From: Eledone cirrhosa
Lineage: Eukaryota
NCBI GenBank assembly: GCA_964016885.1
Contig: OZ024753.1
Location: 13,392,001 to 13,456,000 of the forward strand
Length of the DNA: 64,000 bases
Reading direction: 5' to 3'
Both the position numbers and the translations under genes were made by a program. Shown here piece after piece: positions 9,509 through 63,980 of this stretch. The notes under the pieces were generated by a model. That model was not told where the DNA came from. It was given only the letters and a program-made list of their open reading frames with translations, and searched no databases. Numbering within the stretch: the first letter of the stretch is position 1; each line of letters opens with the position of its first letter.

Positions 9509-9705
9509 CTAACAAAAAGATCAGGTAAAGTTTATGTTAAAAAATATGTATTAACCAGTTACTAACAAAACTCACTGAAACAGAATTAAATTTCACGCAT
9601 ACGTTATTTCAGACATGTTGGTCAGTTAACCCCTTAGCATTTACATTACTCTATATTTATTATTGTATTTTCACAGTAAAGGTTTTATCTCACATAATAT
9701 CGAAT

Positions 9706-15764: not shown

Positions 15765-16845
15765 CATCAACATACATTAATGACATAGATGCCAACTTAA
15801 AGAATGCCACAGTACTGAAATATGCAGATGACATCAAGCTGTACCTTGAAATCAAAAGGACAGATCCTGAAATCTATAACTCTTTCCTACAATCAGACCT
15901 GGACACATTGCAGTAATGGATCACAGACTGGCAACTGAAGCTGGCTGTGGACAAGTGTACTACCATGTATTTTGGGAGGAAAAATCCAGCGTCCACATAC
16001 TCCCTCCACAACACTGATATCAAGAAGTCCTCTTGTGAACGTGACCTGGGCATTAATGTCAGCAGCGATTTGCGTAGGACAAAGCACATCTCTAAAATTG
16101 TCAAGAAGGCCGAGGGTATCTTGGCATCACTCAGCAAGACCTTTGTTAGCCGCTCTCCAGCCATCTATTTAAAGCTGTATACAGCTATGGTACGGCCACA
16201 CTTGGAATTCACATCATCAGTCTGGAACCCCTATCTTGCTCAGAACATTAACCTCCTGGAAACTGTTCACAGACGTGCAACCAAGCGCATACCCTCCATC
16301 AGACACCTACCATACTCTGAACGCCTTGCTTCCCTGGACATGGATTCATTGAAGCTCCGAGGTCTGGCAATGGACTTGGTAAACACCCACAAAGTTATTA
16401 ACCATCTCGCCAACAACAACCCTGAGCACCTTTTTGATCTCCATGTGTCTAACACACGTGGACATGCCTACAAAGTCAGAAAACAGCACAGCTCCTATGA
16501 CTTTTGGAAACATTTTTTCACGCTTAGAGTTGCTGAAGCATGGAACAAACTGCCTGCATCAGTTGTTAGCTGTCGAGACACTGCTTCCTTTAAAACTTCC
16601 ATGGAACAAACTGTCTGCATCAGTTGTTAGCTGCCGAGACACTGCATCCTTTAAAACCTTCATGCTTCCCGAAATTCGCCAAAACTACACCTGATGTCTC
16701 CCTACCATACACATGCACACACGTGTATATCATGACTCATGCACTGTTCATTTTCCTGACGTTTGTACATTACCCTATGTACTATACATACACTTTTGAT
16801 GAGTTGTAGTGCACCTGAGCACTGTACACAATATTTTCATTATTA
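15765..16845 (+). mobile_element. 5'-truncated CR1/L2-type LINE (RT C-terminus, disabled)
   Basis: YINDID...LKYADDIKLY RT motif, internal stop, ERDLGINVS...LYTAMVRPHLEF...VWNPYL...RRATK, NTRGH, FFTLRVAEAWNKLP. Confidence 0.9.
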
Positions 16846-22146: not shown

Positions 22147-22484
22147 TTCAGACCGGGTGATGTGTTGTTTCCTTGAGAAGACACTTTATTTCACATTGCT
22201 CCAGTTTACTCAGCTGTAGAAATGAGGATGATAGGACTGGGGTCCATATCATTCCACTGCAAAGTGGTCGTGGAGGTGCCACGGCAAAAAAAGCACCCAG
22301 TCCACACTGTAAAGTGGACGTGTAGGTGCCACGGAAAAAAAAAAAAGCATCCAGCACTCACAGTAAATGAGGTTGGTGTTAGGAAGGGCATCCAGCTGTA
22401 GAAATCAAGCCAGAATCAGTTCCCATCCCACCCTTGCAAGCAGGGAAAAGCGGACGTAAAATGATGATGATGATGATGATGATG
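22147..22484 (+). mobile_element. SINE family A (5'-truncated)
   Basis: Matches 6330-6660; (ATG)n tail. Confidence 0.85.
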
Positions 22485-22555
22485 AACCCAGAGACAATTT
22501 CAGGCAGTTTTGGTATCAAAATAAATTTAAACAGTGATTTTAATATTTGACTCAC

Positions 22556-22753
22556 ATGGAAGCAACAATCCAAAACAGCACAACTATGATTATACATCAT
22601 TCTCATGTTGTTAGTCACAACATCGTAAAGACGTACACTGGTATCCCACGATGACACAAGTAAAAACTGATTAGAATTTGGGCCAAATTTTACAGCTGAA
22701 ATACCATCAGTAGGTGGATTCTTCAACTTAAACTCAATGGCTGGTTCTGCCAT
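22556..22753 (-). CDS. BUB3: BUB3 coding exon 1 (mitotic checkpoint WD40 protein; six exons total 984 nt, 327 aa)
   Basis: [45 protein letters not shown]...AVLDCCFH|GTGAGT; acceptor CTAG at 22763, 9 nt before the ATG. Confidence 0.97.
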
Positions 22754-22859
22754 AATGGATATCTAGATGTCAGAAAAGACAAAGTGAACAAAAATATATC
22801 TTTAGTAATAATATTCAATGATATTAAATAAATGGAAACTATATTTATAAAACCATATT

Positions 22860-22920
22860 TATTCTATTATATATATTTCAAGGGTACCAAAACTTTGGTA
22901 CGCTTTCATCAGATAAAATA
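22860..22920 (-). ncRNA. Type I minimal hammerhead ribozyme fold
   Basis: Minus strand: TATTTTAT-CTGATGA-AAGCGTACCAAA GT TTTGGTACCCTT-GAAA-TATATATA^ATAGAATA. Stems I and II pair; stem III is palindromic. Confidence 0.7.
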
Positions 22921-23114
22921 CAAAGTGTGTTTTATAAATTTTGACATAACCAAGGAAAATACCTTAACGGTTCAAGTTTTCCTTGGATAATGAAGGGATA
23001 GTAATAATATATATGCAAGCATGGAAAAATAGACGTTAAACAATGATGATGATCTATCATTAAATCTAATTCTAAAGTCTGTCTTAAGCTAAAAGGCTCG
23101 TTAGGCTGGTACAT

Positions 23115-27303: not shown

Positions 27304-27485
27304 CCAACAAGGGTACTTGGTTATTCCAGTATCTTACCTCGCTATCACAGCAATCCTGCAAGAGTATCGACTTGCCTCAATAATTATTTGAGAGGAAAAT
27401 CTAGCATCTCATGTTATGTGTGAGGGTCTTCTCCCACTTTTTAAATATATATAAAGTTGTTTTGGGTTCAAACGGGGGTAACCAC

Positions 27486-27536
27486 AGCTTCCTGATGATT
27501 TCTCACGAATGAAACAGTTCTATTCCTGTAGAAGCT
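27486..27536 (+). ncRNA. Type I hammerhead ribozyme fold
   Basis: AGCTTC-CTGATGA-TTTCTCACGAAT-GAA-ACAG TTCTATTC CTGT-A^GAAGCT. Stem I AGCTTC/GAAGCT, stem III ACAG/CTGT, GUA triplet; stem II short with a U-U first pair. Confidence 0.7.
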
Positions 27537-27691
27537 TTTCTATATTAAATATCTAGATATATATATATATATATATATCCAAAATTAAATTAAGGGTGTC
27601 ATGTCAGAGAGACATGCGCCATATCCACTGTAGAATATGCTCCAAGCATTTTATGTCAACTAGAAATTGATTGACATATATATATATATAT

Positions 27692-27833
27692 AAGTTTTAA
27701 TATAGATGAGATTCTACAGGACTAGAATCTCATCTAGTCCTGTAGAATCTCATCTATATTAAAACTTTTATACTCTGCTATGTATTGAGTACCTTACTTA
27801 CTGTGGTTACCTCCGATTCAACCCGGAATAACG
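27692..27833 (+). mobile_element. (TA)n-flanked fold-back element: 35-bp arms plus tail
   Basis: Arms 27692-27726 and 27733-27767. The right arm resembles the 3' side of the 27486 hammerhead; tail 27801-27832 is an inverted copy of 27457-27488. Confidence 0.65.
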
Positions 27834-28249
27834 TATATATATATATATATATAAAATAAACATATGAAACAATCACAGGGAATAATTTGTAAAAGTGTGT
27901 AAGCACACATAGCTAGGTAGGTAACTAATTAAAGTTTAACTAGAACTTCAAAAATAGATACCTTATAAATTGATTAATCAATTTATAAGGTATATATCCC
28001 ATCCATGCTTTGCCGTTCTCACACATTAACTTTCTACAAGAATGCCCCATGTTTTGATAAGTGATGTTAAGTCAAAACCATTCAATGTGAGTGTCAGACT
28101 CTGCCAAGGGAAGAGTGTTATCACTTCTCCTGTTCATAATCTTCATGAATAGTTTTGACATGCCCAGCCAGGCTTGAAATGGTACCAAGACTGGCAGATG
28201 TAGGATCAGTCAACTAAAATTTTCAGATGACATATTACTTAACTCGTCA

Positions 28250-29477: not shown

Positions 29478-32400
29478 CTAAAGTTTGTCTCAAGCCAGGA
29501 GGCACATCAGGCCAGTGTTTATCCCGGTTTCGTAGCGTGAAGCAACTGACAAACTGAGAGTACATGACTTCCCCCTGGACAGGACACCAGTCCTTTGCAG
29601 AGTTGAAGTCTGTCTCGAGCCCAGAGGCTTGTCAGGCCAGTGTTTATCCCGGTTTCGTAGCGTGAAGCAACTGACAAACTGAGACTACATGACTCAACCC
29701 TGGACAGGACACCAGTCCATTGCAGGGTTGAAGTCTGTCTCGAGCCCAGAGGCTTTTCAGGCCAGTGTTTACCCCGGTTTCGTAGCGTGAAGCAACTGAC
29801 AAACTGAGAGTACATGACTTCCCCCTGGACAGGACACCAGTCCTTCGCAGGGTTGAAGTCTGTCTCGAGCCCAGAGGCTTGTCAGGCCAGTGTTTATCCC
29901 GGTTTTGTAGCGTGAAGCAACTGACAGAGTACATGACTTCCCCCTGGACAGGACACCAGTCCTTTGCAGGGTTGAAGTCTGTCTCGAGCCCAGAGGCTTG
30001 TCAGGCCAGTGTTTATCCCGGTTTTGTAGCGTGAAGCAACTGACAGAGTACATGACTTCCCCCTGGACAGGACACCAGTCCTTTGCAGGGTTGAAGTCTG
30101 TCTCAAGCCCAGAGGCTTGTCAGGCCAGTGTTTATCCTGGTTTCGTAGCGTGAAGCAACTGACAAACTGAGAGTACATGACTTCCCCCTGGACAGGACAC
30201 CAGTCCATTGCAGGGTTAAAGTCTGTCTCGAGCTTAGAGGCTTGTCAGGCCAGTGTTTATCCCGGTTTCATGGCGTGAAGCAACTGACAAACTGAGAGTA
30301 CATGACTTAACCCTGGACAGGACACCAGTCCATTGCAGGGTTAAAGTCTGTCTCGAGCCCAGAGGCTTGTCAGGCCAGTGTTTATCCCGGTTTCGTAGCG
30401 TGAAGCAACTGACAAACTGAGACTACATGACTCAACCCTGGACAGGACACCAGTCCTTTGCAGGGTTGAAGTCTGTCTCGAGCCCAGAGGCTTTTCAGGC
30501 CAGTGTTTACCCCGGTTTCGTAGCGTGAAGCAACTGACAAACTGAGAGTACATGACTTCCCCCTGGACAGGACACCAGTCCTTTGCAGGGTTGAAGTCTG
30601 TCTCGAGCCCAGAGGCTTGTCAGGCCAGTGTTTATCCTGGTTTCGTAGCGTGAAGCAACTGACAAACTGAGAGTACATGACTTCCCCCTGGACAGGACAC
30701 CAGTCCATTGCAGGGTTGAAGTCTGTCTCGAGCCCAGAGGCTTGTCAGGCCAGTGTTTATCCCGGTTTCGTAGCGTGAAGCAACTGACAAACTGAGAGTA
30801 CATGACTTCCCCCTGGACAGGACACCAGTCCATTGCAGGGTTAAAGTCTGTCTCGAGCTTAGAGGCTTGTCAGGCCAGTGTTTATCCCGGTTTCATGGCG
30901 TGAAGCAACTGACAAACTGAGAGTACATGACTTAACCCTGGACAGGACACCAGTCCATTGCAGGGTTAAAGTCTGTCTCGAGCCCAGAGGCTTGTCAGGC
31001 CAGTGTTTATCCCGGTTTCGTAGCGTGAAGCAACTGACAAACTGAGACTACATGACTCAACCCTGGACAGGACACCAGTCCTTTGCAGGGTTGAAGTCTG
31101 TCTCGAGCCCAGAGGCTTTTCAGGCCAGTGTTTACCCCGGTTTCGTAGCGTGAAGCAACTGACAAACTGAGAGTACATGACTTCCCCCTGGACAGGACAC
31201 CAGTCCTTTGCAGGGTTGAAGTCTGTCTCGAGCCCAGAGGCTTGTCAGGCCAGTGTTTATCCTGGTTTCGTAGCGTGAAGCAACTGACAAACTGAGAGTA
31301 CATGACTTCCCCCTGGACAGGACACCAGTCCATTGCAGGGTTGAAGTCTGTCTCGAGCCCAGAGGCTTGTCAGGCCAGTGTTTATCCCGGTTTCGTAGCG
31401 TGAAGCAACTGACAAACTGAGAGTACATGACTTCCCCCTGGACAAGACACCAGTCCATTGCAGGGTTAAAGTCTGTCTCGAGCTTAGAGGCTTGTCAGGC
31501 CAGTGTTTATCCCGGTTTCATGGCGTGAAGCAACTGACAAACTGAGAGTACATGACTTAACCCTGGACAGGACACCAGTCCATTGCGGGGTTAAAGTCTG
31601 TCTCGAGCCCAGAGGCTTGTCAGGCCAGTGTTTATCCCGGTTTCGTAGCGTGAAGCAACTGACAAACTGAGAGTACATGACTTAACCCTGGACAGGACAC
31701 CAGTCCATTGCAGGGTTGAAGTCTGTCTCGAGCCCAGAGGCTTGTCAGGCCAGTGTTTATCCCGGTTTTGTAGCGTGAAGCAACTGACAGAGTACATGAC
31801 TTCCCCCTGGATAGGACACCAGTCCTTTGCAGGGTTGAAGTCTGTCTCGAGCCCAGAGGCTTGTCAGGCCAGTGTTTATCCCGGTTTCATGGCGTGAAGC
31901 AACTGAGAGTACATGACTTCCTCCTGGATAGGACACCAGTCCATTGCAGGGTTGAAGTCTGTCTCGAGCCCAGAGGCTTGTCAGGCCAGTGTTTATCCCG
32001 GTTTTGTAGCGTGAAGCAACTGACAGAGTACATGACTTCCCCCTGGATAGGACACCAGTCCTTTGCAGGGTTGAAGTCTGTCTCGAGCCCAGAGGCTTGT
32101 CAGGCCAGTGTTTATCCCGGTTTTGTAGCGTGAAGCAACTGACAGAGTACATGACTTCCCCCTGGACAGGACACCAGTCCTTTGCAGGGTTGAAGTCTGT
32201 CTCGAGCCCAGAGGCTTGTCAGGCCAGTGTTTATCCCGGTTTTGTAGCGTGAAGCAACTGACAGAGTACATGACTTCCCCCTGGACAGGACACCAGTCCT
32301 TTGCAGGGTTGAAGTCTGTCTCGAGCCCAGAGGCTTGTCAGGCCAGTGTTTATCCTGGTTTCGTAGCGTGAAGCAACTGACAAACTGAGAGTACATGACT

Positions 32401-35400
32401 TCCCCCTGGACAGGACACCAGTCCATTGCAGGGTTGAAGTCTGTCTCGAGCCCAGAGGCTTGTCAGGCCAGTGTTTATCCCGGTTTCGTAGCGTGAAGCA
32501 ACTGACAAACTGAGAGTACATGACTTCCCCCTGGACAGGACACCAGTCCATTGCAGGGTTAAAGTCTGTCTCGAGCTTAGAGGCTTGTCAGGCCAGTGTT
32601 TATCCCAGTTTTATGGCGTGAAGCAACTGACAAACTGAGAGTACATGACTTAACCCTGGACAGGACACCAGTCCATTGCAGGGTTAAAGTCTGTCTCGAG
32701 CCCAGAGGCTTGTCAGGCCAGTGTTTATCCCGGTTTCGTAGCGTGAAGCAACTGACAAACTGAGACTACATGACTCAACCCTGGACAGGACACCAGTCCT
32801 TTGCAGGGTTGAAGTCTGTCTCGAGCCCAGAGGCTTTTCAGGCCAGTGTTTACCCCGGTTTCGTAGCGTGAAGCAACTGACAAACTGAGAGTACATGACT
32901 TCCCCCTGGACAGGACACCAGTCCTTTGCAGGGTTGAAGTCTGTCTCGAGCCCAGAGGCTTGTCAGGCCAGTGTTTATCCTGGTTTCGTAGCGTGAAGCA
33001 ACTGACAAACTGAGAGTACATGACTTCCCCCTGGACAGGACACCAGTCCATTGCAGGGTTGAAGTCTGTCTCGAGCCCAGAGGCTTGTCAGGCCAGTGTT
33101 TATCCCGGTTTCGTAGCGTGAAGCAACTGACAAACTGAGAGTACATGACTTCCCCCTGGACAAGACACCAGTCCATTGCAGGGTTAAAGTCTGTCTCGAG
33201 CTTAGAGGCTTGTCAGGCCAGTGTTTATCCCGGTTTCATGGCGTGAAGCAACTGACAAACTGAGAGTACATGACTTAACCCTGGACAGGACACCAGTCCA
33301 TTGCGGGGTTAAAGTCTGTCTCGAGCCCAGAGGCTTTTCAGGCCAGTGTTTACCCCGGTTTCGTAGCGTGAAGCAACTGACAAACTGAGAGTACATGACT
33401 TCCCCCTGGACAGGACACCAGTCCTTTGCAGGGTTGAAGTCTGTCTCGAGCCCAGAGGCTTGTCAGGCCAGTGTTTATCCCGGTTTTGTAGCGTGAAGCA
33501 ACTGACAGAGTACATGACTTCCCCCTGGACAGGACACCAGTCCTTTGCAGGGTTGAAGTCTGTCTCGAGCCCAGAGGCTTGTCAGGCCAGTGTTTATCCC
33601 GGTTTTGTAGCGTGAAGCAACTGACAGAGTACATGACTTCCCCCTGGACAGGACACCAGTCCTTTGCAGGGTTGAAGTCTGTCTCGAGCCCAGAGGCTTG
33701 TCAGGCCAGTGTTTATCCCGGTTTCATGGCGTGAAGCAACTGACAAACTGAGAGTACATGACTTAACCCTGGACAGGACACCAGTCCATTGCGGGGTTAA
33801 AGTCTGTCTCGAGCCCAGAGGCTTGTCAGGCCAGTGTTTATCCCGGTTTCGTAGCGTGAAGCAACTGACAAACTGAGAGTACATGACTTAACCCTGGACA
33901 GGACACCAGTCCATTGCAGGGTTGAAGTCTGTCTCGAGCCCAGAGGCTTGTCAGGCCAGTGTTTATCCCGGTTTTGTAGCGTGAAGCAACTGACAGAGTA
34001 CATGACTTCCCCCTGGATAGGACACCAGTCCTTTGCAGGGTTGAAGTCTGTCTCGAGCCCAGAGGCTTGTCAGGCCAGTGTTTATCCCGGTTTCATGGCG
34101 TGAAGCAACTGAGAGTACATGACTTCCTCCTGGATAGGACACCAGTCCATTGCAGGGTTGAAGTCTGTCTCGAGCCCAGAGGCTTGTCAGGCCAGTGTTT
34201 ATCCCGGTTTTGTAGCGTGAAGCAACTGACAGAGTACATGACTTCCCCCTGGATAGGACACCAGTCCTTTGCAGGGTTGAAGTCTGTCTCGAGCCCAGAG
34301 GCTTGTCAGGCCAGTGTTTATCCCGGTTTTGTAGCGTGAAGCAACTGACAGAGTACATGACTTCCCCCTGGACAGGACACCAGTCCTTTGCAGGGTTGAA
34401 GTCTGTCTCGAGCCCAGAGGCTTGTCAGGCCAGTGTTTATCCCGGTTTTGTAGCGTGAAGCAACTGACAGAGTACATGACTTCCCCCTGGACAGGACACC
34501 AGTCCTTTGCAGGGTTGAAGTCTGTCTCGAGCCCAGAGGCTTGTCAGGCCAGTGTTTATCCTGGTTTCGTAGCGTGAAGCAACTGACAAACTGAGAGTAC
34601 ATGACTTCCCCCTGGACAGGACACCAGTCCATTGCAGGGTTGAAGTCTGTCTCGAGCCCAGAGGCTTGTCAGGCCAGTGTTTATCCCGGTTTCGTAGCGT
34701 GAAGCAACTGACAAACTGAGAGTACATGACTTCCCCCTGGACAGGACACCAGTCCATTGCAGGGTTAAAGTCTGTCTCGAGCTTAGAGGCTTGTCAGGCC
34801 AGTGTTTATCCCAGTTTTATGGCGTGAAGCAACTGACAAACTGAGAGTACATGACTTAACCCTGGACAGGACACCAGTCCATTGCAGGGTTAAAGTCTGT
34901 CTCGAGCCCAGAGGCTTGTCAGGCCAGTGTTTATCCCGGTTTCGTAGCGTGAAGCAACTGACAAACTGAGACTACATGACTCAACCCTGGACAGGACACC
35001 AGTCCTTTGCAGGGTTGAAGTCTGTCTCGAGCCCAGAGGCTTTTCAGGCCAGTGTTTACCCCGGTTTCGTAGCGTGAAGCAACTGACAAACTGAGAGTAC
35101 ATGACTTCCCCCTGGACAGGACACCAGTCCTTTGCAGGGTTGAAGTCTGTCTCGAGCCCAGAGGCTTGTCAGGCCAGTGTTTATCCTGGTTTCGTAGCGT
35201 GAAGCAACTGACAAACTGAGAGTACATGACTTCCCCCTGGACAGGACACCAGTCCATTGCAGGGTTGAAGTCTGTCTCGAGCCCAGAGGCTTGTCAGGCC
35301 AGTGTTTATCCCGGTTTCGTAGCGTGAAGCAACTGACAAACTGAGAGTACATGACTTCCCCCTGGACAAGACACCAGTCCATTGCAGGGTTAAAGTCTGT

Positions 35401-38400
35401 CTCGAGCTTAGAGGCTTGTCAGGCCAGTGTTTATCCCGGTTTCATGGCGTGAAGCAACTGACAAACTGAGAGTACATGACTTAACCCTGGACAGGACACC
35501 AGTCCATTGCGGGGTTAAAGTCTGTCTCGAGCCCAGAGGCTTTTCAGGCCAGTGTTTACCCCGGTTTCGTAGCGTGAAGCAACTGACAAACTGAGAGTAC
35601 ATGACTTCCCCCTGGACAGGACACCAGTCCTTTGCAGGGTTGAAGTCTGTCTCGAGCCCAGAGGCTTGTCAGGCCAGTGTTTATCCCGGTTTTGTAGCGT
35701 GAAGCAACTGACAGAGTACATGACTTCCCCCTGGACAGGACACCAGTCCTTTGCAGGGTTGAAGTCTGTCTCGAGCCCAGAGGCTTGTCAGGCCAGTGTT
35801 TATCCCGGTTTTGTAGCGTGAAGCAACTGACAGAGTACATGACTTCCCCCTGGACAGGACACCAGTCCTTTGCAGGGTTGAAGTCTGTCTCGAGCCCAGA
35901 GGCTTGTCAGGCCAGTGTTTATCCTGGTTTCGTAGCGTGAAGCAACTGACAAACTGAGAGTACATGACTTCCCCCTGGACAGGACACCAGTCCATTGCAG
36001 GGTTGAAGTCTGTCTCGAGCCCAGAGGCTTGTCAGGCCAGTGTTTATCCCGGTTTCGTAGCGTGAAGCAACTGACAAACTGAGAGTACATGACTTCCCCC
36101 TGGACAGGACACCAGTCCATTGCAGGGTTAAAGTCTGTCTCGAGCTTAGAGGCTTGTCAGGCCAGTGTTTATCCCGGTTTCATGGCGTGAAGCAACTGAC
36201 AAACTGAGAGTACATGACTTAACCCTGGACAGGACACCAGTCCATTGCAGGGTTAAAGTCTGTCTCGAGCCCAGAGGCTTGTCAGGCCAGTGTTTATCCC
36301 GGTTTCGTAGCGTGAAGCAACTGACAAACTGAGACTACATGACTCAACCCTGGACAGGACACCAGTCCTTTGCAGGGTTGAAGTCTGTCTCGAGCCCAGA
36401 GGCTTTTCAGGCCAGTGTTTACCCCGGTTTCGTAGCGTGAAGCAACTGACAAACTGAGAGTACATGACTTCCCCCTGGACAGGACACCAGTCCTTTGCAG
36501 GGTTGAAGTCTGTCTCGAGCCCAGAGGCTTGTCAGGCCAGTGTTTATCCTGGTTTCGTAGCGTGAAGCAACTGACAAACTGAGAGTACATGACTTCCCCC
36601 TGGACAGGACACCAGTCCATTGCAGGGTTGAAGTGTGTCTCGAGCCCAGAGGCTTGTCAGGCCAGTGTTTATCCCGGTTTCGTAGCGTGAAGCAACTGAC
36701 AAACTGAGAGTACATGACTTCCCCCTGGACAGGACACCAGTCCATTGCAGGGTTAAAGTCTGTCTCGAGCTTAGAGGCTTGTCAGGCCAGTGTTTATCCC
36801 GGTTTCATGGCGTGAAGCAACTGACAAACTGAGAGTACATGACTTAACCCTGGACAGGACACCAGTCCATTGCAGGGTTAAAGTCTGTCTCGAGCCCAGA
36901 GGCTTGTCAGGCCAGTGTTTATCCCGGTTTCGTAGCGTGAAGCAACTGACAAACTGAGAGTACATGACTTCCCCCTGGACAGGACACCAGTCCTTTGCAG
37001 GGTTGAAGTCTGTCTCGAGCCCAGAGGCTTGTCAGGCCAGTGTTTATCCTGGTTTCGTAGCGTGAAGCAACTGACAAACTGAGAGTACATGACTTCCCCC
37101 TGGACAGGACACCAGTCCATTGCAGGGTTGAAGTCTGTCTCGAGCCCAGAGGCTTGTCAGGCCAGTGTTTATCCCGGTTTCGTAGCGTGAAGCAACTGAC
37201 AAACTGAGAGTACATGACTTCCCCCTGGACAAGACACCAGTCCATTGCAGGGTTAAAGTCTGTCTCGAGCTTAGAGGCTTGTCAGGCCAGTGTTTATCCC
37301 GGTTTCATGGCGTGAAGCAACTGAGAGTACATGACTTCCTCCTGGATAGGACACCAGTCCATTGCAGGGTTGAAGTCTGTCTCGAGCCCAGAGGCTTGTC
37401 AGGCCAGTGTTTATCCCGGTTTTGTAGCGTGAAGCAACTGACAGAGTACATGACTTCCCTCTGGATAGGACACCAGTCCTTTGCAGGGTTGAAGTCTGTC
37501 TCGAGCCCAGAGGCTTGTCAGGCCAGTGTTTATCCCGGTTTTGTAGCGTGAAGCAACTGACAGAGTACATGACTTCCCCCTGGACAGGACACCAGTCCTT
37601 TGCAGGGTTGAAGTCTGTCTCGAGCCCAGAGGCTTGTCAGGCCAGTGTTTATCCCGGTTTTGTAGCGTGAAGCAACTGACAGAGTACATGACTTCCCCCT
37701 GGACAGGACACCAGTCCTTTGCAGGGTTGAAGTCTGTCTCGAGCCCAGAGGCTTGTCAGGCCAGTGTTTATCCTGGTTTCGTAGCGTGAAGCAACTGACA
37801 AACTGAGAGTACATGACTTCCCCCTGGACAGGACACCAGTCCATTCCAGGGTTGAAGTCTGTCTCGAGCCCAGAGGCTTGTCAGGCCAGTGTTTATCCCG
37901 GTTTCGTAGCGTGAAGCAACTGACAAACTGAGAGTACATGACTTCCCCCTGGACAGGACACCAGTCCATTGCAGGGTTAAAGTCTGTCTCGAGCTTAGAG
38001 GCTTGTCAGGCCAGTGTTTATCCCAGTTTTATGGCGTGAAGCAACTGACAAACTGAGAGTACATGACTTAACCCTGGACAGGACACCAGTCCATTGCAGG
38101 GTTAAAGTCTGTCTCGAGCCCAGAGGCTTGTCAGGCCAGTGTTTATCCCGGTTTCGTAGCGTGAAGCAACTGACAAACTGAGACTACATGACTCAACCCT
38201 GGACAGGACACCAGTCCTTTGCAGGGTTGAAGTCTGTCTCGAGCCCAGAGGCTTTTCAGGCCAGTGTTTACCCCGGTTTCGTAGCGTGAAGCAACTGACA
38301 AACTGAGAGTACATGACTTCCCCCTGGACAGGACACCAGTCCTTTGCAGGGTTGAAGTCTGTCTCGAGCCCAGAGGCTTGTCAGGCCAGTGTTTATCCTG

Positions 38401-41400
38401 GTTTCGTAGCGTGAAGCAACTGACAAACTGAGAGTACATGACTTCCCCCTGGACAGGACACCAGTCCATTGCAGGGTTGAAGTCTGTCTCGAGCCCAGAG
38501 GCTTGTCAGGCCAGTGTTTATCCCGGTTTCGTAGCGTGAAGCAACTGACAAACTGAGAGTACATGACTTCCCCCTGGACAAGACACCAGTCCATTGCAGG
38601 GTTAAAGTCTGTCTCGAGCTTAGAGGCTTGTCAGGCCAGTGTTTATCCCGGTTTCATGGCGTGAAGCAACTGACAAACTGAGAGTACATGACTTAACCCT
38701 GGACAGGACACCAGTCCATTGCGGGGTTAAAGTCTGTCTCGAGCCCAGAGGCTTTTCAGGCCAGTGTTTACCCCGGTTTCGTAGCGTGAAGCAACTGACA
38801 AACTGAGAGTACATGACTTCCCCCTGGACAGGACACCAGTCCTTTGCAGGGTTGAAGTCTGTCTCGAGCCCAGAGGCTTGTCAGGCCAGTGTTTATCCCG
38901 GTTTTGTAGCGTGAAGCAACTGACAGAGTACATGACTTCCCCCTGGACAGGACACCAGTCCTTTGCAGGGTTGAAGTCTGTCTCGAGCCCAGAGGCTTGT
39001 CAGGCCAGTGTTTATCCCGGTTTTGTAGCGTGAAGCAACTGACAGAGTACATGACTTCCCCCTGGACAGGACACCAGTCCTTTGCAGGGTTGAAGTCTGT
39101 CTCGAGCCCAGAGGCTTGTCAGGCCAGTGTTTATCCTGGTTTCGTAGCGTGAAGCAACTGACAAACTGAGAGTACATGACTTCCCCCTGGACAGGACACC
39201 AGTCCATTGCAGGGTTGAAGTCTGTCTCGAGCCCAGAGGCTTGTCAGGCCAGTGTTTATCCCGGTTTCGTAGCGTGAAGCAACTGACAAACTGAGAGTAC
39301 ATGACTTCCCCCTGGACAGGACACCAGTCCATTGCAGGGTTAAAGTCTGTCTCGAGCTTAGAGGCTTGTCAGGCCAGTGTTTATCCCGGTTTCATGGCGT
39401 GAAGCAACTGACAAACTGAGAGTACATGACTTAACCCTGGACAGGACACCAGTCCATTGCAGGGTTAAAGTCTGTCTCGAGCCCAGAGGCTTGTCAGGCC
39501 AGTGTTTATCCCGGTTTCGTAGCGTGAAGCAACTGACAAACTGAGACTACATGACTCAACCCTGGACAGGACACCAGTCCTTTGCAGGGTTGAAGTCTGT
39601 CTCGAGCCCAGAGGCTTTTCAGGCCAGTGTTTACCCCGGTTTCGTAGCGTGAAGCAACTGACAAACTGAGAGTACATGACTTCCCCCTGGACAGGACACC
39701 AGTCCTTTGCAGGGTTGAAGTCTGTCTCGAGCCCAGAGGCTTGTCAGGCCAGTGTTTATCCTGGTTTCGTAGCGTGAAGCAACTGACAAACTGAGAGTAC
39801 ATGACTTCCCCCTGGACAGGACACCAGTCCATTGCAGGGTTGAAGTCTGTCTCGAGCCCAGAGGCTTGTCAGGCCAGTGTTTATCCCGGTTTCGTAGCGT
39901 GAAGCAACTGACAAACTGAGAGTACATGACTTCCCCCTGGACAGGACACCAGTCCATTGCAGGGTTAAAGTCTGTCTCGAGCTTAGAGGCTTGTCAGGCC
40001 AGTGTTTATCCCGGTTTCATGGCGTGAAGCAACTGACAAACTGAGAGTACATGACTTAACCCTGGACAGGACACCAGTCCATTGCAGGGTTAAAGTCTGT
40101 CTCGAGCCCAGAGGCTTGTCAGGCCAGTGTTTATCCCGGTTTCGTAGCGTGAAGCAACTGACAAACTGAGAGTACATGACTTCCCCCTGGACAGGACACC
40201 AGTCCTTTGCAGGGTTGAAGTCTGTCTCGAGCCCAGAGGCTTGTCAGGCCAGTGTTTATCCTGGTTTCGTAGCGTGAAGCAACTGACAAACTGAGAGTAC
40301 ATGACTTCCCCCTGGACAGGACACCAGTCCATTGCAGGGTTGAAGTCTGTCTCGAGCCCAGAGGCTTGTCAGGCCAGTGTTTATCCCGGTTTCGTAGCGT
40401 GAAGCAACTGACAAACTGAGAGTACATGACTTCCCCCTGGACAAGACACCAGTCCATTGCAGGGTTAAAGTCTGTCTCGAGCTTAGAGGCTTGTCAGGCC
40501 AGTGTTTATCCCGGTTTCATGGCGTGAAGCAACTGACAAACTGAGAGTACATGACTTAACCCTGGACAGGACACCAGTCCATTGCGGGGTTAAAGTCTGT
40601 CTCGAGCCCAGAGGCTTGTCAGGCCAGTGTTTATCCCGGTTTCGTAGCGTGAAGCAACTGACAAACTGAGAGTACATGACTTAACCCTGGACAGGACACC
40701 AGTCCATTGCAGGGTTGAAGTCTGTCTCGAGCCCAGAGGCTTGTCAGGCCAGTGTTTATCCCGGTTTTGTAGCGTGAAGCAACTGACAGAGTACATGACT
40801 TCCCCCTGGATAGGACACCAGTCCTTTGCAGGGTTGAAGTCTGTCTCGAGCCCAGAGGCTTGTCAGGCCAGTGTTTATCCCGGTTTCATGGCGTGAAGCA
40901 ACTGAGAGTACATGACTTCCTCCTGGATAGGACACCAGTCCATTGCAGGGTTGAAGTCTGTCTCGAGCCCAGAGGCTTGTCAGGCCAGTGTTTATCCCGG
41001 TTTTGTAGCGTGAAGCAACTGACAGAGTACATGACTTCCCCCTGGATAGGACACCAGTCCTTTGCAGGGTTGAAGTCTGTCTCGAGCCCAGAGGCTTGTC
41101 AGGCCAGTGTTTATCCCGGTTTTGTAGCGTGAAGCAACTGACAGAGTACATGACTTCCCCCTGGACAGGACACCAGTCCTTTGCAGGGTTGAAGTCTGTC
41201 TCGAGCCCAGAGGCTTGTCAGGCCAGTGTTTATCCCGGTTTTGTAGCGTGAAGCAACTGACAGAGTACATGACTTCCCCCTGGACAGGACACCAGTCCTT
41301 TGCAGGGTTGAAGTCTGTCTCGAGCCCAGAGGCTTGTCAGGCCAGTGTTTATCCTGGTTTCGTAGCGTGAAGCAACTGACAAACTGAGAGTACATGACTT

Positions 41401-42750
41401 CCCCCTGGACAGGACACCAGTCCATTGCAGGGTTGAAGTCTGTCTCGAGCCCAGAGGCTTGTCAGGCCAGTGTTTATCCCGGTTTCGTAGCGTGAAGCAA
41501 CTGACAAACTGAGAGTACATGACTTCCCCCTGGACAGGACACCAGTCCATTGCAGGGTTAAAGTCTGTCTCGAGCTTAGAGGCTTGTCAGGCCAGTGTTT
41601 ATCCCGGTTTCATGGCGTGAAGCAACTGACAAACTGAGAGTACATGACTTAACCCTGGACAGGACACCAGTCCATTGCAGGGTTAAAGTCTGTCTCGAGC
41701 CCAGAGGCTTGTCAGGCCAGTGTTTATCCCGGTTTCGTAGCGTGAAGCAACTGACAAACTGAGACTACATGACTCAACCCTGGACAGGACACCAGTCCTT
41801 TGCAGGGTTGAAGTCTGTCTCGAGCCCAGAGGCTTTTCAGGCCAGTGTTTACCCCGGTTTCGTAGCGTGAAGCAACTGACAAACTGAGAGTACATGACTT
41901 CCCCCTGGACAGGACACCAGTCCTTTGCAGGGTTGAAGTCTGTCTCGAGCCCAGAGGCTTGTCAGGCCAGTGTTTATCCTGGTTTCGTAGCGTGAAGCAA
42001 CTGACAAACTGAGAGTACATGACTTCCCCCTGGACAGGACACCAGTCCATTGCAGGGTTGAAGTCTGTCTCGAGCCCAGAGGCTTGTCAGGCCAGTGTTT
42101 ATCCCGGTTTCGTAGCGTGAAGCAACTGACAAACTGAGAGTACATGACTTCCCCCTGGACAAGACACCAGTCCATTGCAGGGTTAAAGTCTGTCTCGAGC
42201 TTAGAGGCTTGTCAGGCCAGTGTTTATCCCGGTTTCATGGCGTGAAGCAACTGACAAACTGAGAGTACATGACTTAACCCTGGACAGGACACCAGTCCAT
42301 TGCGGGGTTAAAGTCTGTCTCGAGCCCAGAGGCTTGTCAGGCCAGTGTTTATCCCGGTTTTGTAGCGTGAAGCAACTGACAGAGTACATGACTTCCCCCT
42401 GGATAGGACACCAGTCCTTTGCAGGGTTGAAGTCTGTCTCGAGCCCAGAGGCTTGTCAGCCAGTGTTTATCCCGGTTTCATGGCGTGAAGCAACTGAGAG
42501 TACATGACTTCCTCCTGGATAGGACACCAGTCCATTGCAGGGTTGAAGTCTGTCTCGAGCCCAGAGGCTTGTCAGGCCAGTGTTTATCCCGGTTTCATGG
42601 CGTGAAGCAACTGAGAGTACATGACTTCCCCTTGGACAGGATGCCAGTCCATTGCAGGGTTAAAGTATGTCTCAATCCCGAAGTCCGGTGCTTATCCCAG
42701 TTTAGTGAAGTAACTGAGAGTACATGACTACCCCATGGACATGACACCAG
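29478..42750 (-). repeat. ~13.3-kb satellite of 125/119/117-bp monomers (~108 copies) derived from a SINE 3' half, with higher-order repeats
   Basis: Monomer ATCCCGGTTTCGTAGCGTGAAGCAACTGACAAACTGAGAGTACATGACTTCCCCCTGGACAGGACACCAGTCC(T/A)TTGCAGGGTTGAAGTCTGTCTCGAGCCCAGAGGCTTGTCAGGCCAGTGTTT. Identical ORF-track entries recur at offsets 625, 2206 and 3212. Confidence 0.98.
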
Positions 42751-45534: not shown

Positions 45535-45567
<33 letters not shown>

Positions 45568-45573
<6 letters not shown>

Positions 45574-45840
45574 CAAGGACGATTTGTTATGCCTTCATTA
45601 CGTTTATTGATTGGTGATGTACATTTCGCTATTGGACCAGATCGATACAGATCGAACCGTGAGCTGATCAATAGCGAAACGTGCGTCACCAATCAATGAA
45701 TGTAATGAAGGCATAAAAATCGTCCTTGTATTATTATATTTACACTCTATTTAGCTTTACACCTCGCTACAGACGTGAATCTAAACATCGAGTGTTCACC
45801 TGGGTGAACCTACAGAAACTTTGCGTTACACCCCCTGGAG
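45568..45840 (+). mobile_element. (TA)n-flanked fold-back element with a hammerhead 3' half
   Basis: Imperfect palindrome 45568-45734; right arm has GAAACGTGCGTC^ACCAATC (GAAA, minimal stem III, GUC); unique tail runs to the (TA)n at 45841. Confidence 0.6.
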
Positions 45841-45871
45841 ATATATATATATATATATATGTATATATATT

Positions 45872-46240
45872 AGCATACAGAGAGAAGTACACACAGAGAT
45901 ATGTGTTAAATCATAGGGGATCAAAAACCACCAGATTGACAAACATTAACTACGGAAGAAATGGTGAATACAAATCAATTAAAAAGATATATTGAAGTGT
46001 CCAAACCATCTAATTATAACCATATAATATATTTTTTTAAATTGATTTGTATTCACCATTCCTTCTGTAGTTAATGTTTGTCAATCTGGTGGGTTTTGAT
46101 CCCTTATGATTTAACACATATCTCTGTGTACTTCTCTCTATATGCTGATTTATAAAGAGCCCGGAATCTATTCCTTGAGCTCATTAAATTATGGGGGATT
46201 AATGAGAGTCTTTAACTCCATTTTTTTTATTTGATATATA
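45872..46240. mobile_element. (TA)n-flanked fold-back element, ~115-bp arms
   Basis: 45872-45986 is the reverse complement of about 46033-46147 with scattered mismatches; tail ends at a short TA run. Confidence 0.65.
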
Positions 46241-51116: not shown

Positions 51117-52374
51117 CTGAAAAACAACAAAACTTTCACTGAATACAGCTGCATTATATTAACTAGCAGAAAAACCACCCTTTGGGTGATTTTTCTGCTA
51201 GTATGTGTGGTGTGCATATTGATATTATATGCAAATATACATACATGTAGATATGATACTCAAATAAAATCGTAATTGACAATATGCACAGAAATTGAAG
51301 AGAGACTGTGTTGCTCTGTCTTCTGTAATCAGTAAAGTAATCCATGATACATTTAAAAAAGACGATATTATATCATCATCTCATCATCATCTTCGTTTAA
51401 CGTCCATCTTCCACGCTAGCATGGGTTAGACGGGAGTTGTCCCATCTGAGGCAAGGTGGTCGGGTGACCATGTCTCGCTCATATAGGACTATCTGGCAGG
51501 TTTTACAGTGTAGAACTGGGAACTTTTTACAGTGTTACCTACACGGCCACATTACAGCGTGGACTGTGTTTTTTTTTTGTCGTGACACCTACACGATCCC
51601 GATCTCATTTATTTGGACTGCATTATATAAACTGCATTACGGTGAAATGTAATGAAAACGAAAGAGGAGAAAATTTAGTGAGGGAAATATAAACCTTATA
51701 TAACGATGCAAATATATGAAATTTAGTACAAAAATTATGTAATATTCATTCATTATTTATTCAAAGTAATCTAACTTATTTTACTAACAGGATAAAAGAA
51801 TATATTCAGGGCACAGTCCCGCACTCCTCCCTTTATTATATTATGATGAGAGTTTCTCCAAATGACATGCTTGATGAACAGTCCTTTTTTGAAAAGATGT
51901 GTGAAGTGAAGCATCTTGCTTAAGAACACAATGTGCTGTCTGGTCCAGGTACTAAACCCACAACCTGACAATCATAAGTCCAACACCCTGCCAACTAGGG
52001 CACTCACTTTCTCAATAATGATAATAATTTCTTTATTGACCATAATGGGGACAATTGAAGACCCTCTTCGGTCACGAATGACCGTGTGATTTGCACCCTC
52101 CGAGGCACAATTCCAAGCAAGGTTTGTGGAAGACCAGCAGTCGCCCATACATACCAGCCTCCACACTACCGATGTTGTCCAAGGGAAAGGCTAAGGCCAA
52201 TAGAGCTCGAAATAGCGTCACAACTCATTTCTACAGCTGAGTAAACTGGAGCAATGTGAAATAAAGTGTCTTACTCAAGGACACAACGCATCACCCGGTC
52301 TGAGAATCCTTACAATTGCAAACCCAATGCTCTAACCCCTAAGCCATGCGCCTTCACATGGGGACAATACAATA

Positions 52375-53701: not shown

Positions 53702-54290
53702 TTAGTTTCTTCCGCCCTGTTCGGCGCATCGAGCAGTAAGTACTCGCCAACGGTCACGATCAAGGGCAACTTTTTCGAGACCGTGCCAGGTGATATTGAC
53801 TGCCATTAGGTCCTTCCGGAACGTTCGTCGCCTGGTGATCCTTGAACAACCCCGCCTCCTTTTACTGCCAGGCGGAGTCCAGTTCATCGCTGTTTTCGAA
53901 TGCCGTTCATTTGGCAGACGCAGAATATGGCGGCCAGCCAGACGACACCGATGCTCCGTGACCCCTCTCTGTAGCGTCCACGACTCGGCTCTCCTCAGGA
54001 TCTCCTCGTATCGCACTCAGTCGAGCCAGGACACACGAAGGATCTTTCGCAGGCACCGCTGGTGGAAAGCATTCAGCCATCCTCTCTATTTTTGCCGTAC
54101 TCTTCCAGGTTTCGCTCGCATAAAGCACTGTCGGCAGCATGATGCTCTTGTACAGGCGGAGCTTTGGTCTTGGTGCTAATGCATGAAGACGACCAGACTG
54201 GGCACAGCCGCTGGGAAACTGCGGTTCCTTTGCCGATCCAACAGTTGATGTCAAGCTCCGCGTCACCGCTGCTTGTCAGTAGGCACCTCT
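53702..54290 (-). mobile_element. RTE LINE fragment nested within another RTE 3' end (53490-54680)
   Basis: KLRLYKSIMLPTVLYASETW; GRHILRLPNERHSKTAMNWTPPGSKRRRG...DRDRWR. Flanks continue the plus-strand RTE/SINE tail. Confidence 0.8.
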
Positions 54291-54684
54291 TAACTGCCCA
54301 GTCATTAGGCACCTCTTAACCAAATATACACCCCGACCCACACTCCATCCTCCGACTCCCACCAACACCACCCTTTCTCTGTAAAGTTATGTTGGTACCA
54401 CAACATCCAGTTCAAACTAAAGACGTTGTGTAGGTGTCATGACAAAAAAACACCCAGTCCACACTGTAAAGTGGTTGTGTAGGAGACCCGGTAAAAAGGC
54501 TCCCAGTCCACACTGTAAATGTGGTTGTTGTTAGGAAGAGCATCCAGCCATAGAAAACCTGCCAGATAGTCCTATACGAGCGAGACACGATCACCTGATA
54601 AATCTTGCCTCAAGTGGGACAATTCCTGTCTAACCCATGCTAGCGTGGAAGATAGACGTTAAACAATGATGATGATGATTGCTT

Positions 54685-57009: not shown

Positions 57010-57990
57010 CATCATCATCATCATCATCATTTAACGTCCATCTTCCACACTAGCATGGGTTTGGACGGGAATTTTCCCACTTGAGGCAAGATTGGTTGTC
57101 TTGCTCGTATAGGACTGTCTGGCAGGTTTTCTATGGCTGGATGCCCTTCCTAACACCAACCATTTACAGTGTGGACTGGGAGGTTTTTACTGTGTTACCT
57201 ACACGACCACATTACAGCGTGGACTGTGTTTTTTTGTCGTGACACCTACACGACCTCATTTATTTAGGACTGGATGTTGTGGTACCAACATAACTTTACA
57301 TCGAAAGGTGTGGTAGTAGTGGGACGGGGGTCGGGGTGTATTTTGGTTAAGAGGTGTCTACTGACTGTAGGTTTCGCTTTGTACTTAGGCAAGGCGGGTC
57401 TTCTGTATTACTGCGTAGCGCCAAAGATCTTGGTCCAGTGACATTGTCTTGGAGAGGTGTAAGAGTGTGAGGTCGGAATTTATCAAGTCGTCCCAGGTTT
57501 TTCTGGGTCTGCCTACTCCATGGCTACCGTCTATTTTGATCGCCCTGCACTTTTAAATACAGCTGTCGTCATGCACATCATGTGACCATATCAAATAAGA
57601 GGGATCAGATGCTGTTTATTCTCGGATAAACAGCATCTGATCCCTCTTATTTCTAATTTCTCACTTAGTTCATTTATGCTTTGCCGTTTACGTATATTAC
57701 TATTACACATCGAACGGAGCATGCAAGCTTCGTTCCTCTCCAGTCTGCATATATCCTCTGCACACAATACCCAAGTCTCACTGCCATGTAACATTGCTGT
57801 TCGTATGCAGGCATCATACAGCCTGCCTTTCATTTTTAGAGAGAAACCTTTAGCGGCCAATAGTGGTATAAGCTCTCTGAACTTTTTCCATCCTGTTCCG
57901 ACTCTAGCTACTGTACTTTCAGAGCACCCTCCCCCACTGCTGATTTTGTCACCCAGGTAACGGAAGGTGTCCACTATTTCTATAGAACCA
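57010..57990 (-). mobile_element. RTE LINE 3' portion with (ATG)n tail
   Basis: DTFRYLGDKISSGGGCSESTVARVGTGWKKFRELIPLL...RLYDACIRTAMLHGSETW, then the same 3' region as 7390-8050. Confidence 0.88.
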
Positions 57991-58964
57991 GTGGAACAAA
58001 ACCGTCTAACCCATGCTAGCGTGGAAGATGAACGTTAAACGATGATGATGATGATAGAGTATTAACTTTGTTAATGATAATAACATTGACTGTTTCACCT
58101 TCTGTATCTTCATCTTCTTTACTTTTTACTTCATCTGTATTCTATGCTTCACTTGGATTCCTGACAAATATTTATGACGGAATTTCACTGAGGTCAACAA
58201 ACAAATGAAACACTAAATGCCCTTGGCACCTGTCCATGTAGGTACCTTTCATCAAAATGAATTCCACTGCATCTCTATATAAGATCCAGACATTTGGTCT
58301 CAGAATGGAACGGTTTTTTTAATTAGCCCTAAACTACCATTGTACAGTAAAAAATACAATTTTTTTTTTTACTTTTATTGTATTTTCTATTTTATTTTAT
58401 CTTATATTTGATTTATTTACAAACTGTAACTTTATATTTTATATTTCGACTTTTACCTTTATTATCTCTTATTTTTTTATTATTTTTTATTCTTTACTGT
58501 GTATTTATTTGATATATTCCATGATTTTGCTGCTACGGATCATGAGGCAATTTATATCAACATCAAGATAACTTCCTGAAGGTAGAATACAACTAAATAT
58601 GTTCAGGCAAGCAGCTAATGAACTAATTACATCAGAGTCAAGCAAAATGTTTACACAAGATTTGGATTCTGTTATGTAATTACAATTACCACTGAGTTGT
58701 TTAAAAAAGGAAGGGTCTATCTATCTGATAGACACCATGGGCTACAGCCAGAGTTAAGACAATTGTTAAGACAATTTGAAATATTTTCCACCATCAATTG
58801 TTAAAAAACAAGTTAAAATCATTAAGTCATCCATTCGTAACTTAAATTACACTTTAATTACATACACACACATCTACACATAAATACATAAACAGATACA
58901 GACAACAGAAGGAAGGGGCTGGTGAAACGCTATAGAGATGTGTGTTGCATCACTTTAGGGTTTA

Positions 58965-60631: not shown

Positions 60632-60956
60632 CATTTTACGTCCGCTTTTTCCCTGCTTGCAAGGGTGGGACGGGAACCGATTCTGGCTTGATTTCTACAG
60701 CTGGATGCCCTCCCTAACACTAACCTCATTTACAGTGAGTGCTGGGTGTTTTTTTTGCCGTGGCACCTACACATCCACTTTACAGTGGAATGATAGGGAC
60801 CCCAGTCCCTATCATCTCATTCTACAGCTGAGTAAACTGGAGCAATGTGAAATAAAGTGTCTTGCTCAAGGAAACAACACATCACCCGGTCTGAGAATTG
60901 AACTCACAACCTTTCGATTGCAAGTCCAATGCTCTAACCACTAAGCCATGTGCCTC
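60632..60956 (-). mobile_element. SINE family A
   Basis: Reverse complement of the family A consensus. Confidence 0.85.
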
Positions 60957-60989: not shown

Positions 60990-61025
<36 letters not shown>

Positions 61026-61026
61026 T

Positions 61027-61220
61027 AGGAATGAGTAGGACCCCGACGGCTGAGCTCAAGCCGTTTCGACGGCTAATTCTGAGTCCAGAATTATCCGTCG
61101 AAACGGCTTGAGCTCAGCCGTCAGGCTCCTACTCGTTCCTATTACCCACTCTACTACCCTAAGTATTGAGTACTTTGGTGCGTTATGGTCCACCTGGTTC
61201 CTTACCACATTTCCTTCGTT
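61027..61220 (+). mobile_element. TA-flanked fold-back element with a hammerhead 3' half
   Basis: Palindrome 61027-61140; right arm GAAACGGCT-TGAGCTC-AGCCGTC^AGGCTCC; tail contains GTATTGAGTAC, also seen at 27782. Confidence 0.6.
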
Positions 61221-61353: not shown

Positions 61354-61755
<402 letters not shown>

Positions 61756-61892
61756 CAAAGATTAATATGGTTCATTGATTACACAATGAATATAGTTTTA
61801 CAATAGATTTAAAGCACTCTACAGTAAGTTTTCTGGCGTTATTAATATTATTCAGAATATTAATAAATGAAGACATTCACATAATCAAAATG

Positions 61893-61954
61893 TTTTATTA
61901 TATATATTTCGAAGGTACTGTGCTGTTTTTTCAGTACGTCCTCGTCAGATAAAA
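61893..61954 (-). ncRNA. Type I minimal hammerhead ribozyme fold (mirror copy)
   Basis: Reverse complement of 62071-62132. Confidence 0.68.
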
Positions 61955-62070
61955 TACATGAATTGATGTATGACATACCTCAACTGTCTTGATGGTTCAA
62001 TTCCAGTATTGGCAGATAATGGAATTGAACCATCAAGACAGTTGAGGTATGTCATACATCAATTCATGTA

Positions 62071-62132
62071 TTTTATCTGACGAGGACGTACTGAAAAAAC
62101 AGCACAGTACCTTCGAAATATATATAATAAAA
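62071..62132 (+). ncRNA. Type I minimal hammerhead ribozyme fold
   Basis: TTTTAT-CTGACGA-GGACGTACTG..CAGTACCTTC-GAAA-TATATATA^ATAAAA; same family as 22860-22920. Confidence 0.7.
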
Positions 62133-62172
62133 CATATTTTGATTATGTGAATGTCTTCATTTATTAATATTC

Positions 62173-62232
<60 letters not shown>

Positions 62233-62234
<2 letters not shown>

Positions 62235-62500
62235 ATGTATAATAAACAATACAATATAATTACCTCATTACCAGAGGTTTCCCGAATAAGACGAATACAA
62301 GAAACGTCCGCATTCGTTCGTCAGACAAGGAATTGCCTTGTCTGACGAACGAATGCGACGTTTCTTGTATTCGTCTTATTCGGGAAACCTCTGGTAATGA
62401 GGTAATTATATTGTATTGTTTATTATACATTAAATTTAGCTCTGTAACTTACATGGAGCACTCTTCACTCTTCCAATTTTCAACGGAAACTTCAATACTT
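62233..62500. mobile_element. Fold-back element: ~98-bp arms, 5-nt loop, plus tail to a TA run
   Basis: 62233-62330 versus 62336-62432. Confidence 0.85.
62336..62402 (+). ncRNA. Type I hammerhead ribozyme fold (mirror copy on minus strand at 62263-62330)
   Basis: CCTTGT-CTGACGA-ACGAATGCGACG..CGTCTTATTCGG-GAA-ACC TCT GGT-A^ATGAGG. Stem I has G-U pairs and the first stem II pair is mismatched. Confidence 0.6.
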
Positions 62501-62664
62501 ATATATATATATGCGAGGGGGTTTCAAAGGGTTCGTGGAAAAAGTACATAGTTAAAAATCATATGCAGGGATTGTGATCTCAAATGAAATTGATAACAAA
62601 AACAAAATTGAAGGCCGTGCCCCAGTATGGTCGAGGTCTAATGACTGAAACCAGTAAAAATAAA

Positions 62665-63930: not shown

Positions 63931-63980
63931 GCTTCTACAGGATTAGAACTGTTTCATTCGGAGGAAATCATCAGAAAAGA
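63931..63980 (-). ncRNA. Hammerhead fold, degenerate stem I
   Basis: Minus strand TCTTTT-CTGATGA-TTTCCTCCGAAT-GAAACAGTTCTAATCCTGTA^GAAGC; core nearly identical to 27486-27536. Confidence 0.55.

Follow-up and report, generated by a model that had tools for sequence, protein, structure and literature searches.

The closest described systems are Penelope-like elements (PLEs) of the Hydra clade, which, according to the accessible portion of PMC8557442, carry canonical hammerheads and lie nearly all in (TA)n. Named cases are Penelope-13_HM, Hydra-2_Ajap and Hydra-1_Obim, one of them from Octopus. Like the elements described below, they have a type I hammerhead ~100-200 nt from the 3' end, a (TA)n target and an extension at one end only, and in Penelope-13_HM a copy that is inverted and 5'-truncated places one hammerhead on either strand. 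The same portion of that paper states that the formation of PLE tandem and inverted structures, and the choice of microsatellites, are open questions. In an octopus repeat paper (PMC13282606, main text), active PLEs are reported, and the words 'ribozyme' and 'hairpin' do not occur.

Three other systems bear comparison, each as given in the accessible text of its source. Truncated PLEs with dual minimal hammerheads (min-HHRs) resemble our locus in having the two ribozymes on opposite strands, ~100-700 bp apart, with a palindromic helix III; they are reported from Schistosoma, and that text deals with neither (TA)n nor a tail nor the junctions (PMC4209133). There, minimal hammerheads are predicted to need dimers, and a self-complementary helix III is the dimer-type form. 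Non-LTR retrozymes are likewise short, non-coding and PLE-related, with a type I hammerhead; however, they are head-to-tail tandems of 150-450 bp, whereas the elements here are arranged head to head, with no two ribozymes on the same strand (PMC7229834; bioRxiv 10.64898/2026.07.22.740005). PAc, a Poseidon element from Anolis, informs the mechanism (PMC11167929) and is taken up below. Both hammerhead pairs on opposite strands and inverted copies within (TA)n have thus been published already (PMC4209133, PMC8557442), and the ribozyme biology of our locus is ordinary: opposite-strand double hammerheads are a known by-product of truncated PLEs.

The window, that is, the whole 64-kb stretch of DNA analysed, holds two long near-perfect palindromes side by side. 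These had been proposed in the original prediction and are real. Palindrome A (61848-62178) has arms of ~158 nt that are identical save for one 2-nt indel, with one mismatch and a 6-nt spacer (62010-62015) at its centre, while the arms of palindrome B (62233-62432) measure 98 and 97 nt, differ by a 1-nt indel and enclose the spacer AATTG. The predicted association with (TA)n stands as well: each palindrome touches (TA)n on a single side, and on the other a tail of 91 nt (A) or 68 nt (B) separates it from a second (TA)n. From one (TA)n to the other, an element consists of the short inverted arm, then the long arm and finally the tail. Table 1 lists the features.

Table 1. Positions and strands of palindromes A and B, other fold-backs and solo hammerheads in the window.
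Feature	Positions	Strand	Basis
Left target flank of A: (TA)n with G interruptions	61354..61754	.	sequence, repeat analysis
A tail, found on long-arm side only	61755..61847	-	fold-back analysis; read depth rises at 61846
A long arm with type I hammerhead (core 61948-61942, predicted cleavage after 61899)	61848..62015	-	descriptor, covariation
A short inverted arm with type I hammerhead (core 62077-62083, predicted cleavage after 62126)	62016..62178	+	
(TA)n between A and B	62176..62230	.	
B short inverted arm with type I hammerhead (core 62324-62318, stem I 6 bp, predicted cleavage after 62269)	62233..62330	-	
B long arm with type I hammerhead (core 62342-62348, predicted cleavage after 62396)	62331..62432	+	
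B tail, bulged hairpin at 62439-62461	62433..62499	+	hairpin descriptor
Right flank of B: (TA)n	62500..62512	.	
Fold-back C, same layout; arms hold just the 3' half of the hammerhead; tail hairpin 61148	61025..61219	+	
Fold-back D; arms hold just the cleavage triplet and 3' side; tail hairpin 27772	27687..27833	+	
Fold-back F; partial hammerhead; longer tail hairpin, outside descriptor	45559..45840	+	
Fold-back G; hammerhead not recognisable; tail hairpin 46159	45864..46233	+	
Non-palindromic form: inverted D-type tail end joined to hammerhead arm (core 27492)	27454..27556	+	
Solo diverged A-type hammerhead, compensatory stem II changes	22856..22924	-	strict descriptor, covariation
Solo hammerhead, 27492 family	63932..63978	-	relaxed descriptor

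The layout is not confined to A and B. Among 13 fold-backs in the window, six (starting at 27687, 45559, 45864 and 61025, plus A and B) abut (TA)n on one side and have a tail of 62-99 nt leading to a second (TA)n; the remaining seven lie at least 101 nt from any TA run. All six show the general PLE layout of an inverted 5'-truncated copy with an extension at one end. The arms of C, D, F and G are only 83-91% alike, as expected for older copies, and the 3' part of the hammerhead is kept in three of these four (C, D and F) and absent from G. The element at 27454-27556 also sits between two (TA)n runs and has no arm duplication. Compared to published Hydra PLEs, the window elements are ends of 100-260 nt with no ORF or tandem pLTR, and their tails exceed the 30-40 bp given in the accessible text of PMC8557442. 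The centre of D (27720-27760) contains a second copy of the 12-nt stretch found after the predicted cleavage site of D, which suggests a templated insertion at the junction. Near-perfect short palindromes away from (TA)n occur at 7067-7142, 27954-27997, 51162-51202 and 57593-57652.

A complete type I hammerhead had been predicted in each arm, and all four folds are there. Both A copies satisfy a strict descriptor, as does a third, diverged copy at 22912 (-). A relaxed descriptor, loosened once the sequence had been seen, adds both B copies, 27492 (+) and 63974 (-). In B, which passes only this version, an unpaired A and an unpaired G separate the core from stem II. Relaxed matches in the window number seven, versus a mean of 0.37 in 30 shuffles, or six versus none when stem I is at least 6 bp, and a core pattern gives six matches where 0.19 are expected (0 of 100 shuffles). 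The plus-strand cleavage positions put forward earlier, after 62126 and 62396, agree with the predicted descriptor folds. An Rfam hammerhead scan, which had been suggested as a check, gave no such support: the covariance models returned 42 matches up to E=10, with no hammerhead family among them. The A-type pattern had 0 matches in viral contigs and 0 in metagenome contigs.

Stem covariation, likewise named in the original prediction, was found for A. Between A and the 22912 copy, four of nine stem II pairs are changed on both sides, and all 54 cells of the A-type alignment are paired, compared to 37-63% in slid controls; the alignment has three rows from only two independent copies. For B there are just the two arms and no third copy. 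The B long-arm hammerhead has an 11-bp stem I that begins at the palindrome centre; a version of B without stem I (a long helix III register with a 2-bp stem I) was dropped once this register had been found. In the accessible text of PMC8557442, stem II of Hydra hammerheads is usually flanked by one additional base on either side, which also holds for B, 27492 and 63974; the 3-bp helix III with a 3-nt loop is shared with B. A lacks the extra bases, unlike most of those published forms, and differs from the dual min-HHRs in retaining a 3-bp helix III (PMC4209133, accessible text). Helix III of the A short-arm hammerhead is the self-complementary ATATATAT, with a computed duplex energy of -3.2 kcal/mol. 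As a monomer, neither the A nor the B hammerhead is the minimum-energy fold, and the long hairpin competes with the B fold. The hammerheads of A and B are credible as ribozymes.

The tails, in turn, have a feature of their own. A bulged hairpin (RCYC, 3-5 bp, loop, 2-nt bulge, GAGY) begins five of the six, and F carries a longer version. The descriptor was composed after the tails had been seen; in shuffles it matched 0-5 of 1000 per tail (0 of 1000 for A, 61814..61839 on the minus strand, and 4 of 1000 for B). MAFFT aligned the tail hairpins out of register. A and B had been called unrelated in primary sequence, and no blastn match at E<0.01 joins them, yet this hairpin is common to both. The 11-mer GAGCACTCTTC of the B hairpin occurs once in the 584-kb supplement of PMC8557442, at the 3' end of Hydra-2_Ajap. 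By eye, and within the material accessible from that paper, the hairpin can be seen at the 3' ends of Hydra-2_Ajap, Hydra-2_Amil and Hydra-1_Crog and at the 5' start of Hydra-1_Ajap. The tail hairpin may mark the start of copying. We also considered whether the A tail encodes a PLE N-terminus (34-codon frame from 61876, minus strand); a word search gave one candidate and no match, and a full search two matches, both repetitive unrelated proteins, so this candidate was rejected.

The tail hairpin proved useful as a search handle. Metagenome contigs were scanned with a pattern built from the B hairpin and the Hydra-2_Ajap consensus, with no hammerhead required, and ten of the 11 matching loci belong to one PLE family of another animal; the eleventh, L005, is a chance bacterial match and is excluded from the family counts. 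Because the pattern used the Hydra-2_Ajap consensus, this recovery of a Hydra family is not fully independent. In L011 and L004 an ORF ends 111 nt before the hairpin motif, with the hammerhead core at -60 and the predicted cut at -29. The ORF has RWK, DKT and CxCx5C motifs and by eye resembles the published Hydra alignment (PMC8557442, accessible portion). It has 3317 homologues among 7997 scored, many of ~700 aa on contigs of 2.3-2.8 kb, and the closest named ones are from a coral; against Pfam and PDB it gave nothing significant. In L003, the hairpin runs into the start of the next ORF, with RWK and DKT motifs, so that the tail in this family is the 5' start of the following unit. A partial tandem (pseudo-LTR) is seen in L003 and none in the window. 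At oriented positions 110-228 of L003, two consecutive hairpins, each ending in TAGAGCACTC, stand ahead of the ORF start.

Three of the ten loci end at contig ends, and seven have upstream sequence. Two of these seven have the ORF there, and the other five an inverted piece that begins at (TA)n. Of these five, L007 and L010 form palindromes resembling A and B, the inverted arm is directly joined to the tail in L006 and L008, and L009 is irregular. All five inverted pieces end at -38 to -73, in or just 5' of the hammerhead. The A and B arms have no blastn match to this ORF-bearing family, and their tie to it is therefore one of structure and layout, not of sequence descent.

Reads tell how family A is represented elsewhere. 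They were placed on 61756-62040, the left half of A only, in four of 14 runs: X1 (contigs, possibly from the source sample), X4, X5 (another organism) and X12 (raw reads under the same species label, from another sample). Matches came to 2381 X1, 132 X4 and 10 X5 contigs and 1591 raw X12 reads; thousands of matches indicate that family A is abundant, although depth is not copy number. Summed X1 depth falls from 82,750 (61996-62005) to 360 (62016-62025), and past 62015, 20 X1 and 2 X5 contigs go on in different sequence, from which it follows that the centre of A is a break in a longer element. At the other side, 227 X12 reads, 21 X1 contigs and one X5 contig stop at 61845 in (TA)n, which is the end of the A short arm; family A thus has two 3' ends, one tail-less at this position and one tailed. 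In the tail hairpin, the A copy has a private mismatch at 61837, where the pairing base is present in 183 of 190 X12 reads.

Among the best 40 of 85 variant rows from the reads, all seven that fall inside the A hammerhead preserve the fold: one is a C/U change at N7, two are stem II wobbles, one lies in the loop, two in stem I and one in helix III. Since these figures come from the best 40 of 85 rows, core-breaking variants of lower support may exist. The CpG sites at 61910-61911 and 61943-61944 in the A hammerhead vary at the tolerated base (11.1 and N7). Changes at their partner core bases are absent from the 40 best-supported rows, a hint of selection on the core.

The layout, the abundance, the tail hairpin and an ORF-bearing related family with the same fold-backs together make it likely that A and B derive from the ends of Hydra-clade PLEs, truncated at the 5' side and inverted, which bears out the Penelope-like origin of the original prediction. 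Neither a motif scan nor a Pfam search of 82 of the 153 ORFs found a PLE reverse-transcriptase or GIY-YIG ORF in the window, which is what truncated ends would lead one to expect, and the L011 protein gave a best tblastn match to the window of E=0.14. With the parent ORF not in the window, it is a short hairpin and the form of the hammerhead that carry the link, and Hydra-clade membership is likely. Neither of the two A/B hammerhead motifs occurs in the supplement of PMC8557442; A and B thus belong to families other than those published there. We consider it most probable that A and B are two separate insertions of Hydra-clade PLE 3' ends into one TA microsatellite, formed as set out below. 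The label 'non-autonomous' of the original prediction finds no support, given that most family-A copies extend past the centre and that in the related family fold-backs exist alongside ORF-bearing copies.

In the mechanism we propose, a PLE protein would cut both strands of (TA)n, and each cut end would prime reverse transcription, one at the tail end and the other at an internal site immediately 5' of the tail hairpin. An inverted arm joined to a tail would result where the first cDNA stopped at the second start site; if it ran on, both cDNAs would stop near the hammerhead and a palindrome would form. Joining of the cDNAs could make use of a very short complementarity, AATT for B and GATC for L007, and the product would be a tailed copy and an inverted tail-less copy, head to head, with the double hammerhead as a passenger. 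Such fold-back copies are probably dead on arrival. As described in the accessible text of PMC11167929, PAc is similar in that both strands of an AT-rich target are cut and extended, two start sites bound the tail, a stem-loop lies at the start region and the RNA template is uncut. It is dissimilar in that its tail lies in the ORF start, whereas the tail-ORF test of A was negative and the hairpin of L003 precedes the ORF. More tentatively, and as a possibility that we would not yet favour, the hairpin may be a conserved RNA signal of the Hydra clade, from corals to molluscs, with two reverse-transcription start sites and with cDNAs that stall at the uncut hammerhead. If this mechanism is true, the fold-backs are a direct genomic record of how inverted PLE structures form, and the hammerhead acts as a stop signal and not as a cutter. 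The fixed pair of 3' ends, the intervening hairpin and the hammerhead junctions would offer a precise template and clear mutants with which to study this in vitro.

As an explanation of the palindromes, the strongest competitor keeps the PLE origin and has a single cDNA snap back and copy itself to a TA-like site. This would account for the small distance, 0-6 nt, between the points at which the two arms stop in A and in B, and at the A centre a snap-back of 3 bp around a 6-nt loop could form; AATT at the B centre and GATC in L007 also lend themselves to it. It seems unlikely to us, however, because the unduplicated arm-tail forms (27454-27556, L006 and L008) would need later loss of one arm and because the short-arm end is a site at which many other copies end.

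It is improbable that A and B are instead non-autonomous hairpin elements that move as whole palindromes with PLE protein supplied in trans. What suggests this are contigs that cross the A centre with variants, 3 + 3 from X1 and one from X4 (11 differences, 7 gap positions), which indicate that the same junction may recur at several loci and to that extent count against our main reading; these could be a small fold-back subfamily moving as a unit. Retrozymes, too, are reported as derived from PLE pLTRs (bioRxiv 10.64898/2026.07.22.740005, accessible text). Against it, X1 depth past the A centre is only ~0.4% of the adjoining arm bin, and centres vary: they are not the same among the six window fold-backs, nor between L007 and L010. 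Repeat analysis of the 64-kb window found no head-to-tail tandem of A or B, and the head-to-tail hammerhead units characteristic of retrozymes are absent, the A/B copies being head to head. The read-through RNA is also predicted to be fully paired, with hammerhead helix probabilities of 0.000; this agrees with the earlier suggestion that a full transcript would form a long hairpin sequestering the ribozyme.

A third possibility, to which we give little credence, is that hammerhead cleavage defines the RNA template, with reverse transcriptase stopping at or jumping the cut. In its favour, junctions cluster at the hammerhead: of the seven in the window (the six fold-backs and 27454-27556), five fall within it or at the stem I foot, as against five of five at the hammerhead in the related family. 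Taken alone, the window count is weak, since short arms must end around there anyway. All junctions are 5' of the predicted cut (by 9-44 nt in the related family), so that the triplet is always kept, and hammerhead mutants of the Anolis element left in vitro insertion unchanged (PMC11167929, accessible text). The distal ends likewise speak against the idea that A and B are ribozyme-processed: no cleavage triplet is cut, and the elements terminate at two fixed sites located 36-144 nt 3' of the intact triplets, which means that cleavage does not set these ends. From the core, the distance is 100 nt (A) and 90 nt (B) to the tail-less end and 193 nt (A) and 157 nt (B) to the tail end. In searches of the openly readable literature, neither the Hydra tail hairpin nor a clustering of junctions at the hammerhead turned up in any published description.

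We regard it as very improbable that the palindromes are artefacts of assembly or of read fold-back. No record has 31 letters on both sides of the A centre, in part because the examined stretch reached no further than 62040; the reads cover A only, and X1 is possibly the source sample. The arms nevertheless differ by indels and the flanks differ, four other fold-backs have visibly diverged arms, the raw X12 reads contain a separate strand-switch joint at 61959/61991 (60 reads, 2 starts), and the same layout recurs in another animal. Fold-back DNA transposons or TA-targeted MITEs that resemble a hammerhead by chance would also have long inverted arms within TA repeats, and plant TA-microsatellite MITEs exist as far as the accessible sources go, but they are hardly credible here given the asymmetric ends with a one-sided tail, mostly non-palindromic copies, a covarying hammerhead and a reverse-transcriptase ORF in the related family.

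The suggestion that the elements yield a ribozyme whichever strand is transcribed is not supported: the hammerhead on both strands is a by-product of inversion, and the antisense arm comes first on either strand. With the two hammerhead copies on opposite strands, dimerisation in cis is impossible. At six fold-backs per 64 kb, such elements would presumably be a large source of long dsRNA wherever they are transcribed.

The host is an animal whose genome is rich in repeats. LINE reverse-transcriptase end-like fragments lie at 15917-16630 (+), 53706-54315 and 57586-58034, with no reverse-transcriptase Pfam match among the 82 of 153 ORFs searched. A tRNA-like head at 60891-60948 (-) belongs to a dispersed repeat of ~345 nt with several copies in the window, which is probably a SINE. 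Among the same 82 ORFs, WD40 exons of a host gene, at 22379-22762 (-) and 9288-9536 (-), were the only ones above or near the Pfam cut-off. The one at 22379-22762 reads like BUB3. The 22912 (-) hammerhead is ~150 nt upstream of the start codon of this WD40 exon, in the same sense, and may therefore be in the transcript. A 13-kb GC-rich satellite with a 125-bp unit (~107 copies, 94% alike) occupies 29481-42673, and the window is rich in further minisatellites.
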